Positions 1,712 to 51,984 of a DNA stretch of 64,000 nt are shown here, piece by piece. Position 1 is the first letter of the stretch. Each line of letters starts with the position of its first letter. Made by a program: the position numbers and the translations under genes. This stretch comes from Eledone cirrhosa (Eukaryota). The stretch is taken from the NCBI GenBank assembly GCA_964016885.1, contig OZ024763.1, forward strand, positions 9,300,001 through 9,364,000, read 5' to 3'. A model generated the notes under the pieces. It ran no database searches. It had not been told where the DNA came from and was given only the letters and a program-made list of their open reading frames with translations.

Positions 1712-1819
1712 TTAGGCAGCGAGTTCGCGGTAATTCCTATGTAGGTTATACTTGGAGTAATAATAGTGAAAGAATGAAGAGTAACGTGGTTGGCTGTACA
1801 ACAAGGGGCTTTATTTCAG

Positions 1820-1930
1820 GTATTAACAATTGTTTCATTGATCAGATGAGTCTAGAAGCCGCTAATCGCTCGAAGTTGCGTCACTCGATCTCCATTACAT
1901 TATTTACCTCTGATCAAATCCTCAGAATAC
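1820..1930 (-). ncRNA. Type I minimal hammerhead ribozyme in the 3' pseudo-LTR (GUU site)
   Basis: Minus strand: gtatt-CTGAGGA-tttgatcaga...tctgatcaat-GAAA-caatt-GTT-aatac; stem I gtatt/aatac, stem II ttgatcaga/tctgatcaa, palindromic stem III acaattgt. Confidence 0.7.
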
Positions 1931-2489
1931 AAAAATAATTAATACAAGGCAAAATATATATAGAGAAATAGCGTATAATCCAAACAATAACATGAATAAT
2001 AAAATATAAATGATAAATAGGTAGAGAAGTTGTAAAAAGTAAAAGATAAGAAAAAAGATACAGTAAAAAAGGAAAAATAATAGAAATATAAAGAAATAAG
2101 GATAAGTGAGAGCATATAAGTACAGAATATGATAGTGGTGGTGGTGAGTAAGTGTCCATATAAGGATTCTGTGGTGGGTTTAGTGCTAACATGGAAAGTC
2201 ATATTCGAAACATATATAGATACCTGTAGAGAGTCTGAGGTAGTGACAGATAAAAGAAAAAGCAATAAATTAGAGATTAATTGGGAGATACTAGTATGAG
2301 ACCCAAGGGCTAAGGATGGATGGTGAAGGGATGTTTGACAAATGTGTGTGGTAAATGTTTTGCTGATTGTCTTGTCTTAATGGGGTTGATGCAGTTTCAG
2401 GGAGAGAGGGTGAAAGAGATGTTAAGAGATTTATGATCTAGTGACCAGTTGGCCGTTTGACAGCTAATAGCGGTGTGATGGTGTATTTT

Positions 2490-4959
2490 CCATACTTAAA
2501 ATCCAGGTGGTTCAGTTCTAATTTTGGGATTGCTGGCTCGAATCACAGTGGTTTGAAATTTGTGAACTTGGTAGCTATTTTATGCCTACAGAAAATTGAT
2601 CTTTCTATTTTGCTGTTAAGCAGCATCTTATCGTACCTTAAAATATGGAATAGCTCCATATTACAAAGTCTGCAGAGGGACATCCCATTGTTGTAGGCTC
2701 TTGTTTCTGATAATTTTGACCAGCTAGTCCCATATTCCTGGTTTGTGTTTTTAAACTACCAGATATTATTGGCGAGCTTTGTAGAGTTCTCCAGTCTACG
2801 GTTCTTCATGGAGCGTCTGTGAATGTACCATCTTTTTCTGAACTCCCCAGCCGTGGAACCTATGTAGTGCCAAGTAAAGTTGCCTGAATTTACAGTTTAC
2901 AGGTACACCATACTTGAATCCAGGCATCTATTTTGTAGTGGGCACTTATCCGGTAGGTGGCAGTTACAGTTGGAAGCTTTTCTGTGTGCAGGTTCTCCGT
3001 TACGGTTTTGTATGTTGTTGTGGGTGGGTTGAGATTTAGGCCTATTAGTGTTTTGTTGTGATGCGCCCTGGTGTGTTTGTGGTTGCGATGTTATGTGTTT
3101 GTGGTTGCGATGTTATGTGTTTGTGGTTGCGATGTTATGTGTTTGCGTTTTGTATTTGGTGCTATGGTGTATGATGGTAGGTTATTTTCTTTAGAGATAT
3201 TTTTGTGGTTGATTTTATGTATGTGTGATTCTATGTTGGCTGCAGTAGAGTAAGATAGTTTGATAGTTCTTCTATTAAAGATTCTATGGTATTTGTGTAG
3301 TTTAGGCAAGTGTTTGTCGATTAGCTTAAAGAATGTAGGAGGTAGTTTGGCTTGTATAGAGGAGTTGAATATTGGATTGAACCATAAGTATTTTCTATCT
3401 CTGGATCTTCTATAGTTCTTAAGGGTCCTTATATTAGTGTTCGGTTCAGTTATTTTTGGTGCTCATTGTCAAATTCTATACTTAGTCCTATGTCTGTTAT
3501 TTCTATAGGTGTGGGTAGTGTAGTTGTCGTTAGGTTTGTTGCTGCTGTCTCTATCTGGTATGTATTCCAGCCCCTCTTTATGTCCTGCCTTATGTAAAGC
3601 TATGTTATAATAGTTTGCGTGTTCATTAAAAATTTCTAGGTTCGAAGATAGGCGGGATATTCTGATGGATATACTATGTGCTATGGAGTTAATTATGGAT
3701 CGGGGGGTGATTTGAGTTATAACTAATGTAGGCTAGATTCTCGTTATTTTTATGGAAGGGCTCTACTAATCCTGTGTTTAGGTTGAGTGTTACATCTAAG
3801 AAGTTTACTTTTTTTAGAGTTAAGTTCGAAAGATGTTTTTTTGTAATGTTTCCTTGTTTTGATTATTTAAGTTTTTGGCTAAAAGGAGTGTGTCGTCTCT
3901 ATAAATTCCTCCCTGGAGGTTATTGAATTCCTTATGTAAGTTGTGCGCTATATATATTCCCACCTAGAACGTTACCTGTGCTGAGTCATTAGATCCCATT
4001 GTGATATCGAAGTTATTCTGTCTGTTTTTTCGTTCCCAGTAACTATTTTCGAATCTTATGATAGTTCTCCTAGCAGCTAGTATTATTTTAATTTCATCCG
4101 AGGTAAGGTCCAAATTTTTCTGGGCAAAGGTTAGCGCTTTATCTAGGGTGACTGGGGATATGGATGAGTAGTAGTCATTAATGTCGAACTGTACGAAGTT
4201 GGATGTTTCTCTACTGTCTATTTTGCTGAACCAGTCTATTGCTTCGTTAGTGTTACCCTATAGCTTAATTACTAGTTTGTCCTTGATTTGTGCGATTACT
4301 CTATCTAGTGTATACTTGCTAATTCTACCAATATCCGACTTCGATGGGCATATTAATTTAATTGCGGGGTCTGTTTCAAAATTATTTTGTGATCCTTTAG
4401 GTTAAATGTGGTGTTACAAGGGGTTAGAGGCTCGGTTCTATCAGATATTTTCAGTTTTTTTACTATGCTAAGTCCTTCCTTATTAATGCTAGTGAGTGCA
4501 GATGCTGTTGTTTTTTTTTTGTATTTTTTGTGCAGTTCACGGCGTATAAAATTATTGTATGTATTAAGGCTCATGGTGTACACGTTTGATGTTTTGTCCG
4601 CTTTTACTATAATACCATTGGTGTTGTGTAGTTATTTTAGTAGTGCATTGATGTCGTTTTGCAGTTTGCTGTGATGTGTCCGTTCTTTGAATTTAGTTTC
4701 ACTTATCATTTTTATGAGGTCGAGTTCGAAGGGGTTTATTCGGTGAATTTTTGTGGGATTTGAATCCGTATTTTTCCTTAGTAAATTCCTCCGTGTTATT
4801 AGCGCGTCCTTTATCATAATGATATGCCTTCCATCGGATTCGACGGATGAAATCATTAGTACGCTGTATCATGCCGAGTTTGTAGTCCTTGTTTGTAGGT
4901 ATAGGTATGTTTTTCAATGACATGCCTATGTGGTGCTTTTCCATGTTAGTGCCATGCAT
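2490..4959 (-). pseudogene. Penelope RT plus GIY-YIG endonuclease ORF, frameshifted
   Basis: Fragments 4699..4959, 4632..4856, 4353..4583 and 3091..3309 plus hand-translated YRDD and VY/YIG motifs; multiple stops and frameshifts. Confidence 0.85.
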
Positions 4960-5213
4960 TAAGGTTGTTGCTCAACCTAGTGGGAGCTGGGAATATGGAG
5001 TAACAAGTTATCATTATAGGTAATCCAGTTAGAGGTTGTGAGTACTCTGCGTTGTGGATAGTTTTAATGTACGGTTTTATTTAACTCAACAAGATGTATC
5101 CATAGTTAGGCAGCGAGTTTGCGGTAATTCCTATGTAGGTTATACTTAGAGTAATAATAGTGAAAGAATGAAGAGTAACATGGTTGGCTGTACAACAAGG
5201 GGATTTATTTCAG

Positions 5214-5324
5214 GTATTGACAATTGTTTCATTGATCAGGTGAGTCTAGAGGCCGCTAATCGCTTGAAGTTGCATCACTCGATCTCCATTACATTATTTA
5301 CCTCTGATCAAATCCTCAGAATAC
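5214..5324 (-). ncRNA. Type I minimal hammerhead ribozyme in the 5' pseudo-LTR (canonical GUC site)
   Basis: Minus strand: gtatt-CTGAGGA-tttgatcag...ctgatcaat-GAAA-caatt-GTC-aatac. Confidence 0.75.
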
Positions 5325-5625
5325 AAAAATAATTCATAAAAGGCAAAATATATATAGAGAAATAACGTGTAATCAAAACAATAACATCAATAAAAAATAT
5401 ATATATGATAAATAGGTAGAGAAGTTGTAAAAAGTAAAAGATAAGAAAAAAGATACAGTAAAAAAGGAAAATAATAAAAATATAAAGAAATAAGGATAAG
5501 TGAGAGCATATAAGTACAGAATATGATAGTGGTGGTGGTGAGTAAGTGTTCATATAAGGATTCTGTGGTGGGTTTAGTGCTAACATGGAAAGTCATATTC
5601 GAAACATATATAGATACGTGTAGAG

Positions 5626-6286
5626 CACAGGTTCTCAACCCATTTAGGCCAAACGCCCCCTTTTGTCCCTCGAAATCACGAAACGCCCCCCCCCCCCCTA
5701 TTTTTTCACTTTTTCAATATACTACTGATTTTTATATCAGTAGATTACTAAAAAATTTGATTAACAATATTCCAAAGGTGTGCATTATCTGATTATGTGT
5801 TGTATGTGGTCTTAGATGTGTGTTCTACTCGCTTCTGTTTTTTTCTTTTCTTTTTTTATTTGTAATATTATTTATACAATAGGGAATAAAATAGATCTAC
5901 ATAGTGTTAACTCGTTACGGTTGAGTCAATAATTTCAGACATGAAATACATTGTATTGGTGAAGGAAAGATAAGATTCTAACTGGCTGCACTCAAAGTGT
6001 CTTTGACCCAGTTGACTGTGGGTTTTTCCATTTTTAGTATCTCAATTACCGGTTAACGTCTCAATTACCAGACACGCCTGCACACCTGCTCACAGCTACG
6101 GTCAGACTATAGTTATGCTATCTGCAAGCTCATTCAAACCGCAGCTGTGAGCAGGTGTGCAGGCATGTCCGGTAATTGAGACGTTAACAGGTAATTGAGA
6201 TCCTAAAAATGGAAAAACCCAGCACCCCCCTAACTCCTTCCCCCAGCTCCAACCCCCCCCCCCCCCCCCCCCGTTGAGAACCTTTG
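5626..6286. mobile_element. Non-autonomous hAT (Charlie-like) element inserted in the Penelope 5' pseudo-LTR
   Basis: 8-bp TSD gtgtagag at 5618-5625 and 6287-6294; TIRs cacaggttctcaac / gttgagaacctttg; empty site visible near 2225. Confidence 0.9.
6020..6220. repeat. About 83-bp-arm imperfect inverted repeat inside the hAT element (possible nested MITE)
   Basis: gggtttttccatttttag...cacagctacggt mirrored by accgcagctgtg...ctaaaaatggaaaaaccc. Confidence 0.85.
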
Positions 6287-6884
6287 GTGTAGAGAGTCTG
6301 AGGTAGTGACAGATAAAAGAAAAAGTAATAAATTAATGATTAATTGGGAGATACTAGTATGAGACCCAAGGGCTAAGGATGGATGGTGAAGGGATGTTTG
6401 ACAAATGTGTGTGGTAAATGTTATGCTGATTGTCTTGTCTTAATGAGGTTGATGCGGTTTCAGGGAAAGAGGGTGAAAGAGATGCTAAGAGATTTATGAT
6501 CTAGTGACCAGTTGGCCGTTTGATAGCTAATAGTGGTGTGATGGTGTTTATTCCATATTTTAAGGTACGATAAGATATTGCTTAACAGCAAAAGATCAAT
6601 TTTCTGTAGGCATAAAATAGCTACCAGATTCACAAATTTCAAACCACCGTGATTCGAGCCAGCAAACCCAAAATTAAAACTGAACCACCTGGATGTTAAC
6701 GTATTACACCCGGACAGTGTACAATTGCGTTCAAGACGGATTCAATGATAGATATGTAAACAGGTTGGCAAATTGTGAGGTAGGTAAACAGGTAGATAGA
6801 TAGGTTGGAAGACAGACAGATACAGAGGTTGGTAGGTAGGTAGATGGACAGACAGTCATAGATATGTAGATAGAGGAGGGGAAT

Positions 6885-50175: not shown

Positions 50176-50209
<34 letters not shown>

Positions 50210-50350
50210 TTAAAGGTTAAACAAGGTTCAATGATTAAATCAAAGAATGAGTTTTACAATAGATTGGAAGCACTCAACAGTTTTGGTTTTCCAGAGTTCT
50301 TAGTATTATTTCAAAATATTAACAAAAATAGACATTCGTGTGATCAAGTA

Positions 50351-50417
50351 TATTTTATTATACATATTTCAGAGGTTCTGAGCTATCTTCAACAGTACGT
50401 CCTCATCAGATAAAATA
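50351..50417 (-). ncRNA. Type I minimal hammerhead-like ribozyme (left arm, sense to the ZNF gene)
   Basis: Exact mirror copy of 50499-50565. Confidence 0.62.
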
Positions 50418-50498
50418 AGATGATGCATGACATACCCTGACATAGTAGATGACTGAATCTTAACCATCTACTATGTCAGGGTATGTCATGCATCATCT

Positions 50499-50565
50499 TA
50501 TTTTATCTGATGAGGACGTACTGTTGAAGATAGCTCAGAACCTCTGAAATATGTATAATAAAATA
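50499..50565 (+). ncRNA. Type I minimal hammerhead-like ribozyme (right arm)
   Basis: tattttat-CTGATGA-gga...tct-GAAA-tatgt-ATA-ataaaata; 8-bp stem I, weak stem II, near-palindromic stem III atatgtat. Confidence 0.62.
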
Positions 50566-50606
50566 TACTTGATCACACGAATGTCTATTTTTGTTAATAT
50601 TTTGAA

Positions 50607-50642
<36 letters not shown>

Positions 50643-51000
50643 TATATATATACATATATATATATATCATTTATTTTGTTTTGACCTGTTTAGCTTGATT
50701 TGGATTTTGGCTTGGGTGGTTAATGCCTTCTTGACCACCTTTTCAGTTTTGTATGGCTTCTTAACACATTGTTTAGCTCTGGTTTTTAACTATTGAGCAC
50801 TTTGCCAGTATCATTTCTGATTTTTGCGTTTCGCTTCGCCTTTCCTGCCCACCGAAATGCGATTATTGCTGAATCTTTATTTGTATATATATGCTGAGAT
50901 GTATAAGAGAAGGATTTCTCACTTTTCACATTTTATATTCTTCCTTCCAGAGTGTGCCTGTATATTTGTGTTTCATATTTCCCAGTGATGGGGTTTATCA

Positions 51001-51756
51001 CTAGTGTTGACTACGTTTGTGAACAACCAGTGTAGAATTCTGAGTGAAAGATTTCCCACATATTTCACAATGGTAGGGTTTTTCACCACTGTGTGTTCTT
51101 TTGTGAACTACAAGACCAGAATTATTAGAGAACGGTATTCCACATAGTTCACAGGAATAAGGTTTTTCTCCAGTGTGTGTCCTTGTGTGAACTATCAGTG
51201 TAGAATTCTGAGTGAAATTTTTCCCACATATCTCGCAATGGAATGGTTTTTCTCCAGTATGTGTCCGCGTGTGCATGACAAGATTTGAATTAGCAGGGAA
51301 AGATTTCCCACAAATTTCGCAGTGGAAGGGTTTTTCTCCAGTGTGACTCCGTATGTGGATGACAAGATTAGAATTAGTGGGGAAAGATTTCCCACATATT
51401 TCACAGTCAAACGGTTTTTCTCCAGTGTGTGTTGAATTGTGTGTTTTTAAACTATAGTTACTGACGAAACATTTCCCACATATTTCACAGTGGTAGGGTT
51501 TTTCTCCAGTGTGACTTCGTATGTGAACGACAAGCTTAGAATTAGTGGGGAAAGATTTATAACATATTTCACAGTGGTAGGGCTTTTCTCCAGTGTGACT
51601 TCGAATGTGGATGACAAGTTTAGAATTAGCAGTGAAAGATTTCCCACATATTTCACATAGATAGGGTTTTTCTCCACTGTGTATATCTTTGTGTGAGGAC
51701 AGTTCATATTTTGAAGAGAAAGTTTTCCTGCAAATCTCACAGCTATATTCAGACAT
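51001..51756 (-). CDS. C2H2 zinc-finger protein, 9 tandem fingers, no effector domain
   Basis: Uninterrupted 251-aa ORF with nine CxxC-x12-H-x3/4-H units joined by TGEKP/SGEKP linkers; AATAAA on the minus strand at 50876-50881. Confidence 0.93.
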   Translation of the reverse strand: MSEYSCEICRKTFSSKYELSSHKDIHSGEKPYLCEICGKSFTANSKLVIHIRSHTGEKPYHCEICYKSFPTNSKLVVHIRSHTGEKPYHCEICGKCFVSNYSLKTHNSTHTGEKPFDCEICGKSFPTNSNLVIHIRSHTGEKPFHCEICGKSFPANSNLVMHTRTHTGEKPFHCEICGKNFTQNSTLIVHTRTHTGEKPYSCELCGIPFSNNSGLVVHKRTHSGEKPYHCEICGKSFTQNSTLVVHKRSQH

Positions 51757-51984
51757 ATTTCTAGCTAGTAATCTTTACACAAAGGATTCTCACCACTTCT
51801 CATACATTAATGTAGATATGGTTAATAGATGCTATGTAGTCTAAGTAATTACAGTGTCCATAAAAGGCTGTAGAACTCGGCTTTCTTCTACAAGGTTGTA
51901 ATGTAGCATTCAGTTGGCACAAGTAAGAAGACATAAGACGGCGTAAGACTGATGTTGGATGAAGAAAATTCAAGTGCAAATATA

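Follow-up and report, generated by a model that had tools for sequence, protein, structure and literature searches.

Several features of the locus described here are already in print for Penelope-like elements, namely inverted pseudo-LTRs (pLTRs), tails and hammerhead pairs on opposite strands. An inverted copy with a one-sided tail is known from these elements (PMC8557442, PMC3846280), and the manner in which such inverted copies and tails arise is given as unresolved in PMC8557442. Hammerhead pairs on opposite strands, 100-700 bp apart, are found in Schistosoma, and a palindromic helix III is typical of dimeric hammerheads of low activity (PMC4209133). In vitro, the Poseidon_Ac reverse transcriptase (RT) uses two adjacent internal start sites and both target strands are cut and extended, with a predicted dimer and a protein-assisted hammerhead also being described (PMC11167929). 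In the available text of that paper, the two start sites are not used to derive head-to-head copies.

The window analysed here, a stretch of 64,000 nucleotides of Eledone cirrhosa contig OZ024763.1 (assembly GCA_964016885.1, positions 9,300,001 to 9,364,000), contains a hairpin close to a C2H2 zinc-finger (ZNF) gene. This hairpin is best read, with a probability of approximately 0.8, as a Hydra-type Penelope-like retrotransposon inserted head-to-head, in minimal form, in a TA repeat, likely primed at two sites and joined as cDNA.

The hairpin and its hammerhead motifs

An earlier sequence-only reading had described a 142-bp inverted repeat without mismatches around a 13-nt loop, and both were recovered, the arms at 50310-50451 and 50465-50606 and the loop at 50452-50464. 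The arms reach 148 bp if one mismatch is allowed, and no second perfect inverted repeat of such length occurs in the window, the other exact-seed inverted pairs being short or interrupted. The insertion is unequal, with the minus-strand arm running 92 nt beyond the palindrome to 50212, and the loop consists of element sequence. Element positions are counted from the first arm base as position 1 (50451 on the minus strand, 50465 on the plus strand). The features are:

50190..50209, no strand: (TA)n target tract flanking the tail, adjoining a (CA)n run
50212..50451, minus: long arm, a 5'-truncated pLTR (element positions 1-240) with 94-97% identity to 39 other copies
50212..50303, minus: 92-nt tail (positions 149-240), present in the long arm only by arm comparison
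50272..50297, minus: small stem ACTC...GAGT within the tail, directly after the short end (by eye and by folding of copies L070/L071)
50351..50417, minus: type I hammerhead motif in ZNF sense, predicted cut after 50359, at the start of AATAAA 50359-50354
50449..50451, no strand: 3-nt junction microhomology CAT/ATG, common to both arms (junction comparison)
50449..50612, plus: short arm, an inverted 5'-truncated pLTR (positions -16 to 148) with no tail (arm comparison)
50452..50464, plus: 13-nt loop (positions -13 to -1), part of the short arm (junction comparison)
50499..50565, plus: second hammerhead motif, predicted cut after 50557
50611..50668, no strand: (TA)n target tract flanking the short arm, from the sequence
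50661..50892, no strand: unrelated interspersed repeat of ~230 nt between ZNF and hairpin, holding both minus-strand AATAAA
51001..51774, minus: C2H2 zinc-finger ORF of 257 aa from stop to stop with eight fingers (strict pattern), a neighbour outside the insertion

No target-site duplication is discernible inside the (TA)n, and 50211-50204 also fits the element's own continuation, giving microhomology at the long end. The locus copy departs from the column majority at five of 240 sites, four of them outside the stem and the fifth at position 75, where the difference is present in both arms. Three rare substitutions (50309, 50303 and 50299; positions 143-153) occur within 11 nt at the palindrome base of the long arm, and this cluster beside 142 identical base pairs could be a sign that the arms were homogenised later. 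The best account of arm perfection at the locus is the youth of the insertion.

The type I hammerhead layout claimed for each arm was found on both strands, and the arm contains the CUGANGA / GAAA / NUH core with three helices. The CTGATGA box is located at 50507 on the plus and 50409 on the minus strand and GAAA at 50546, with a stem I of 8 nt, a helix II region of 32 nt and a helix III of ATATGTAT. The AUA site places the predicted cut after 50557 (plus) and, by mirror arithmetic, after 50359 (minus). These two motifs were the only matches of a loose hammerhead scan in the window. A search against Rfam, which had been suggested as a check on the motif, returned no hammerhead match up to E=10 between 45000 and 56000; what it did return was below threshold and of the chance kind, to miRNAs, snoRNAs and the like. 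A miRNA precursor reading of the hairpin was rejected.

The suboptimal stem II noted earlier is also evident, a rare T-to-A change (A at 50539, mirror 50377) breaking a pair. This A, at position 75, makes up about 68 of a depth of 137,130 in sequencing run X2 and is the cause of the weaker helix II of the locus copy (-2.9 versus -7.6 kcal/mol). The monomer hammerhead fold of this copy is predicted at +0.8 against an MFE of -8.1, with a probability of 4e-8 (ViennaRNA). Judged from these folds, dimer formation or protein help would be needed for self-cleavage, and the locus copy is likely a poor ribozyme even if unmasked.

Across 21 hand-picked copies from several subfamilies, 92.9% of cells pair, compared to 36-55% in slid controls. 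Helices I and III are fixed by the search pattern; in helix II six of the nine pairs change on both sides. Double-change cells in helix II number 26 against 11.4 in shuffled data, a value reached by none of 500 shuffles, but the number of pairs changed on both sides is not above the shuffles (162/500) and the pair types are likewise not above them. Pair 10.1-11.1, which is G-U in the locus copy, is A-U in 11, G-U in seven, G-C in two and otherwise composed in one of the 21 copies, and helix III is palindromic, its centre being U-A or U-G. In position four of helix II (columns 19 and 48 of alignment A1) a C-C mismatch recurs across subfamilies, and the neighbouring pairs covary. The 3' strand of stem I is made up of an AATAAA (50359-50354, minus; 50557-50562, plus), a hexamer that was part of the search pattern. 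The predicted cut falls at its first base, and hammerhead cleavage would destroy that poly(A) signal.

Parent element, repeat family and formation of the arms

A Penelope pLTR had been proposed as the origin of the arm, and longer copies agree with this in joining the arm terminus to an ORF with RT and GIY-YIG-type motifs. These copies show the arm to be the terminal repeat of a predicted ~4.6-kb RT and GIY-YIG-type endonuclease-bearing (EN+) Penelope-like element. Upstream of the arm they carry ~2.2 kb of AT-rich sequence, preceded by the EN C-terminus, and in ORF-bearing copies the tail sequence runs on into the 5' UTR and ORF. The copies L070 and L071/L072 have the order pLTR, short 5' UTR, ORF, 3' UTR and pLTR with a period of 4634 nt, and in L071/L072 an inverted truncated copy lies directly upstream. 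The EN/linker motifs CNCRNRSNC, YIG, CNLC and CLH or YLH are present in the longer copies, together with DKT (VKSDKT) and YRDD in the RT. By an eye count, 28 of 39 matches have RWR, a conservative variant of RWK, as their N-terminal motif. Pfam returned no family for the EN piece and a single one, at a non-significant E=0.97, for the RT piece. All 30 position-ordered arms are inserted in TA-rich tracts, in line with the (TA)n insertion of the Hydra clade. The length of ~4.6 kb exceeds the tendency of this clade (<3 kb), which is not a diagnostic motif. When the motifs are set against the published description, the element fits the Hydra clade.

The element had also been taken for a second family relative to the Penelope at 1.7-6.7 kb of the window, and this distinction holds, with no nucleotide match between the two and identities of 42-70% in four stretches of the RT and of 34-43% in two of the EN/linker. 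The latter region (1716-6700, minus) is a broken second Hydra-type Penelope with the motifs ADKT and CNCHLPDKC. Its terminal repeat is duplicated at about 1716 and 5106, and its terminus gave no match in a CTGANGA scan. Elsewhere in the genome, locus L046 (oriented positions 86-2084 and 4218-6570) contains a different kind of Penelope-type RT-EN frame, open over 666 aa, as well as a second Penelope-like element, both lying next to a copy of the hairpin-forming family.

When the 240-nt long arm was compared to the 3.0-Gb genome, 1053 first-look candidates were obtained, and all 40 of those scored match at 94-100%. An exact 27-mer of the arm has 1851 matches genome-wide, and a looser hammerhead pattern has 15,584, against none for the control. 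The locus, presented earlier as singular, is one among 683 tight head-to-head fold-backs (exact pattern, two cores 50-140 nt apart). Eleven head-to-head pairs less than 200 nt apart occur among the first 100 matches of the looser pattern, and a rough extrapolation gives ~1,700 such pairs for all subfamilies together. A sample was formed by the first 50 fold-backs on contig C1 in position order. Their selection by a 50-140 nt spacer bounds the 5' ends, and that by exact 15-mers favours young copies. Perfect arms of at least 142 bp occur in four of these 50 hairpins and in four of 20 other tight hairpins in a similarity-ranked set, and subfamily variants are mostly common to both arms of a given locus. 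A single hairpin insertion has been copied six times with its flanks (L010, L011, L015, L021, L022 and L030, on contigs C18, C28 and C1124), C18 also carrying many ZNF paralogues. The two arms mutate separately in these six duplicates, in which no variant was common to both arms of one duplicate only, and gene conversion between arms is neither shown nor needed for the family hairpins.

Two element positions recur as arm ends. Among 30 position-ordered arms from 27 loci, 21 end at 146-155 and nine at 240, a TA-rich tract following in all cases, and the element itself runs on with TA-like bases at both end positions, 148 and 240, beside which the target could anneal. Behind the short end there is an ACTC...GAGT stem, with a GCTC...GAGC twin behind the long end in ORF-bearing copies (by eye and folding), and these two small stems are putative RT start signals. 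If an arm is called tailed when it aligns to positions 161-240 with a score above 50, a tailed and a tail-less arm are combined in 47 of the 50 fold-backs, both arms are tail-less in three and both tailed in none; by eye, nine of nine hairpins of other subfamilies likewise pair a tailed with a tail-less arm. The 47 one-tailed pairs and the absence of doubly tailed ones favour two-site priming from opposite target strands.

The proposed enzyme would prime at two fixed internal RNA sites from the two strands of a cut target, one strand at 148 and the other at 240, with two RNAs, or two passes over one source, serving as template. Many cDNAs would extend as far as the 5' end of an RNA begun at a TATA/initiator site, which lies ~22 nt ahead of position 1, and joining of the two cDNA ends would yield head-to-head arms, their identity reflecting one source element and a young insertion. 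The hammerhead may serve the element, through dimer or protein-assisted processing, and would be a weakened passenger at the locus. The 5' ends of 13 of the 30 arms fall between -28 and +12 and those of seven at -22 to -19, none of these position-ordered arms beginning between -29 and -92. Position -22 is the A of TCACT, with TATAAA 31 nt upstream. None of eight ORF-bearing copies begins at -22, five pLTRs reaching -87 to -1100, and the initiator would thus account for no more than one among several 5' ends of the RNA.

In a more detailed form, which is advanced tentatively and at somewhat less than even odds, a dimeric enzyme cuts both (TA)n strands in a twin priming reaction, a small bulged hairpin flags each site, and the cDNAs extend to the capped pLTR start and join. 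If true, twin priming would explain both the tail and the inverted, head-to-head arrangement as products of a single step. The genome would then be seeded with some 700-1,700 perfect hairpins, each with ribozymes, and these would supply ADAR and RNAi upon host read-through, of which read-through by the ZNF gene might be one case.

The inversion could instead have arisen through self-priming (snap-back) of one strand, endonuclease resolution fixing the unequal ends afterwards. The published reading of palindromic or head-to-head Penelope junctions is that an antisense template primes itself (PMC3846280). At the locus the long arm starts from 1 and the short arm from -16 with 3 nt in common, and this CAT/ATG pairing closes the 13-nt loop as a snap-back would, the arms also sharing source variants. 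The further-upstream arm, which owns the loop, was compared in the 19 family-A hairpins scorable for the junction (21 belong to family A among the 50). It is tailed in five, in agreement with snap-back, but is tail-less in 14 and at the locus itself, where copy-back cannot give the 92-nt tail, and both ends sit at TA-like element sequence, as expected of priming sites. Since snap-back along a tail-less cDNA cannot make a tail, two cDNAs primed from opposite strands are the simpler reading and snap-back is considered unlikely. A literature search on Penelope inversion, tails and twin priming, covering few subscription papers, returned only a review on human elements.

The junctions vary from locus to locus, with seven of the 19 showing overlap, five blunt and seven with extra bases, and overlap is not a general rule in family A. 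Locus L016 has the 3-nt junction of the locus copy with the arms swapped (long from -16, short from 1), which suggests either that this junction recurs or that loops flip, and recombinational flipping could obscure the original loop ownership.

A MITE or fold-back DNA transposon was rejected on the basis of the unequal arms, the variable junctions and the arm being a retroelement terminus. Non-LTR retrozymes form head-to-tail tandem units with a hammerhead in each (bioRxiv 10.64898/2026.07.22.740005), and such an array was likewise rejected, the locus having a head-to-head pair only and no head-to-tail tandem units.

The zinc-finger neighbour and the integrity of the hairpin

The position assigned to the hairpin, 395 bp from the ZNF stop codon, was verified as the distance to 50606, and the AATAAA reported at 50881-50876 (minus) is present between the stop codon and the hairpin. 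A further AATAAA occurs at 50675-50670 (minus), 58 nt ahead of the insertion. From this geometry the sequence-only reading had suggested a possible conditional switch, or a source of endo-siRNA, in the 3' UTR of the ZNF gene, its ribozyme being masked until ADAR, a helicase or Dicer acts. The geometry is as described and the masking is reproduced in the predicted read-through RNA, where the sense hammerhead lies entirely in duplex, at a mean unpaired probability of 0.001. The switch itself fares poorly, given the two AATAAA ahead of the hairpin, the rare mismatch that weakens stem II and the disfavoured monomer fold. Recurrence of the arm near other ZNF genes, which had been put forward as a check, was not found, no arm sequence being present within 1.5 kb downstream of any of the best-scoring 29 ZNF paralogues. 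Homology among the paralogues ends sharply 115-120 nt past the stop codon at a microsatellite, well short of the hairpin, and between that point and the hairpin lies the unrelated repeat, an arrangement that counts against a 3' UTR switch. Chance suffices for the association, as ~0.2 cases are expected from 989 ZNF candidates in the genome, 1 kb each and 683 fold-backs per 3 Gb, and this figure rises further with ZNF ends abutting the TA target. The A-to-G mismatches anticipated on the arms are lacking, with no editing footprint in the locus copy in the minus-strand (ZNF) sense and no A-to-G skew among the arm mismatches of the 50 hairpins (A>G 7, G>A 13, T>C 13, C>T 16), a test in which the search pattern excludes hyper-edited copies. 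A co-opted role is thus highly improbable, and the hairpin probably does not act as a control switch of the ZNF gene. Under the two-site priming reading, read-through RNA would be plain dsRNA and a possible substrate of ADAR or Dicer with no selected ZNF role; dsRNA from read-through at the locus is plausible and nothing points to selection.

In the best-scoring 30 ZNF copies, which are distributed over more than 10 contigs, the shared post-stop stretch is followed by (TA)n, (TG)n or (ATC)n (50882-51774; L182-L210), and several contain early stops or frameshifts. These copies may represent a retro-mobilised unit, or an old microsatellite that draws insertions. A literature search on octopus C2H2 zinc finger retrotransposition and microsatellites, in which few subscription papers were covered, gave no match. 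A close ZNF relative (537-aa frame, 17 fingers) is located 13 kb away, just past the window end (64324-64578 equivalent; L080, L182), and is without a hairpin.

That the hairpin is an assembly or amplification chimera derived from a fold-back read can be dismissed for practical purposes: its 142 bp lack any mismatch and the palindrome is known from the assembly only, but the flanks are unlike on the two sides, the ends are the two fixed ends of the family, the loop is made of element sequence and the same design recurs at hundreds of loci with varied junctions and mostly diverged arms. Contigs of four sequencing runs at the locus were mostly other repeat copies and none spans the hairpin, and run X1, from a different organism (share 0.04), had no cover over the hairpin and is uninformative.

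Comparison with known systems

The locus is ordinary for the genome, and the weight lies in the family-level pattern, which bears on the origin of inverted copies and one-sided tails in Penelope-like elements. The hairpins, numbering in the hundreds, may also supply dsRNA to editing enzymes, and in repeat annotation they could be taken for MITEs. In the twin priming of L1 elements, two primers from opposite target strands lead to inversion with short junction homology, as in the mechanism proposed for the present family. The two cDNAs of L1 twin priming cover different parts of one RNA, whereas those proposed here would cover the same 148 nt.

There is a close resemblance to published EN+ Penelope-like insertions, with which the family shares the head-to-head inverted pLTR, the tail on one arm and partial tandems (PMC8557442, PMC3846280), as well as the TATA and TCACT initiator in the pLTR (PMC3846280). 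In the available text of these papers the tail is 30-40 nt, compared to 92 nt here, and the present arms differ in being cut down to about 160-240 nt. The pairing of tailed with tail-less arms is given a count in the present family (47/50), unlike in the published insertions. With the Hydra clade, and with Hydra-1_Obim in particular, the element has in common the DKT, the CxCX5C linker and the CxxC and CxH around the EN end, along with (TA)n targeting and a hammerhead in the pLTR, and by eye its RT motifs follow the Hydra-1_Obim order (PMC8557442). It differs in having RWR rather than RWK and a length of about 4.6 kb with a 2.2-kb 3' UTR, compared to less than 3 kb for the clade, and its hammerhead sequence is unlike that of Hydra-1_Obim, which indicates a different family (PMC8557442).

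The hammerheads share with those of other metazoan Penelope-like elements the type I core, a helix III that is palindromic for dimer use and a long helix II (PMC4209133). The G-C at 10.1-11.1 that is conserved in the latter is G-U in the present copy, and the recurrent helix II C-C mismatch and the lack of an extra nucleotide between 9 and 10.1 also set the present family apart from the metazoan hammerheads as described there (PMC4209133). Poseidon_Ac similarly has two internal start sites bounding a tail, an AT-rich target and extension of both strands, but belongs to another clade, and the start sites of the present family, unlike those described for Poseidon_Ac, resemble the (TA)n target (PMC11167929). 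The near-strict one-tailed pairing, the two TA-like start sites and the peak of 5' ends at the initiator provide sharp predictions for the Poseidon_Ac in vitro system.
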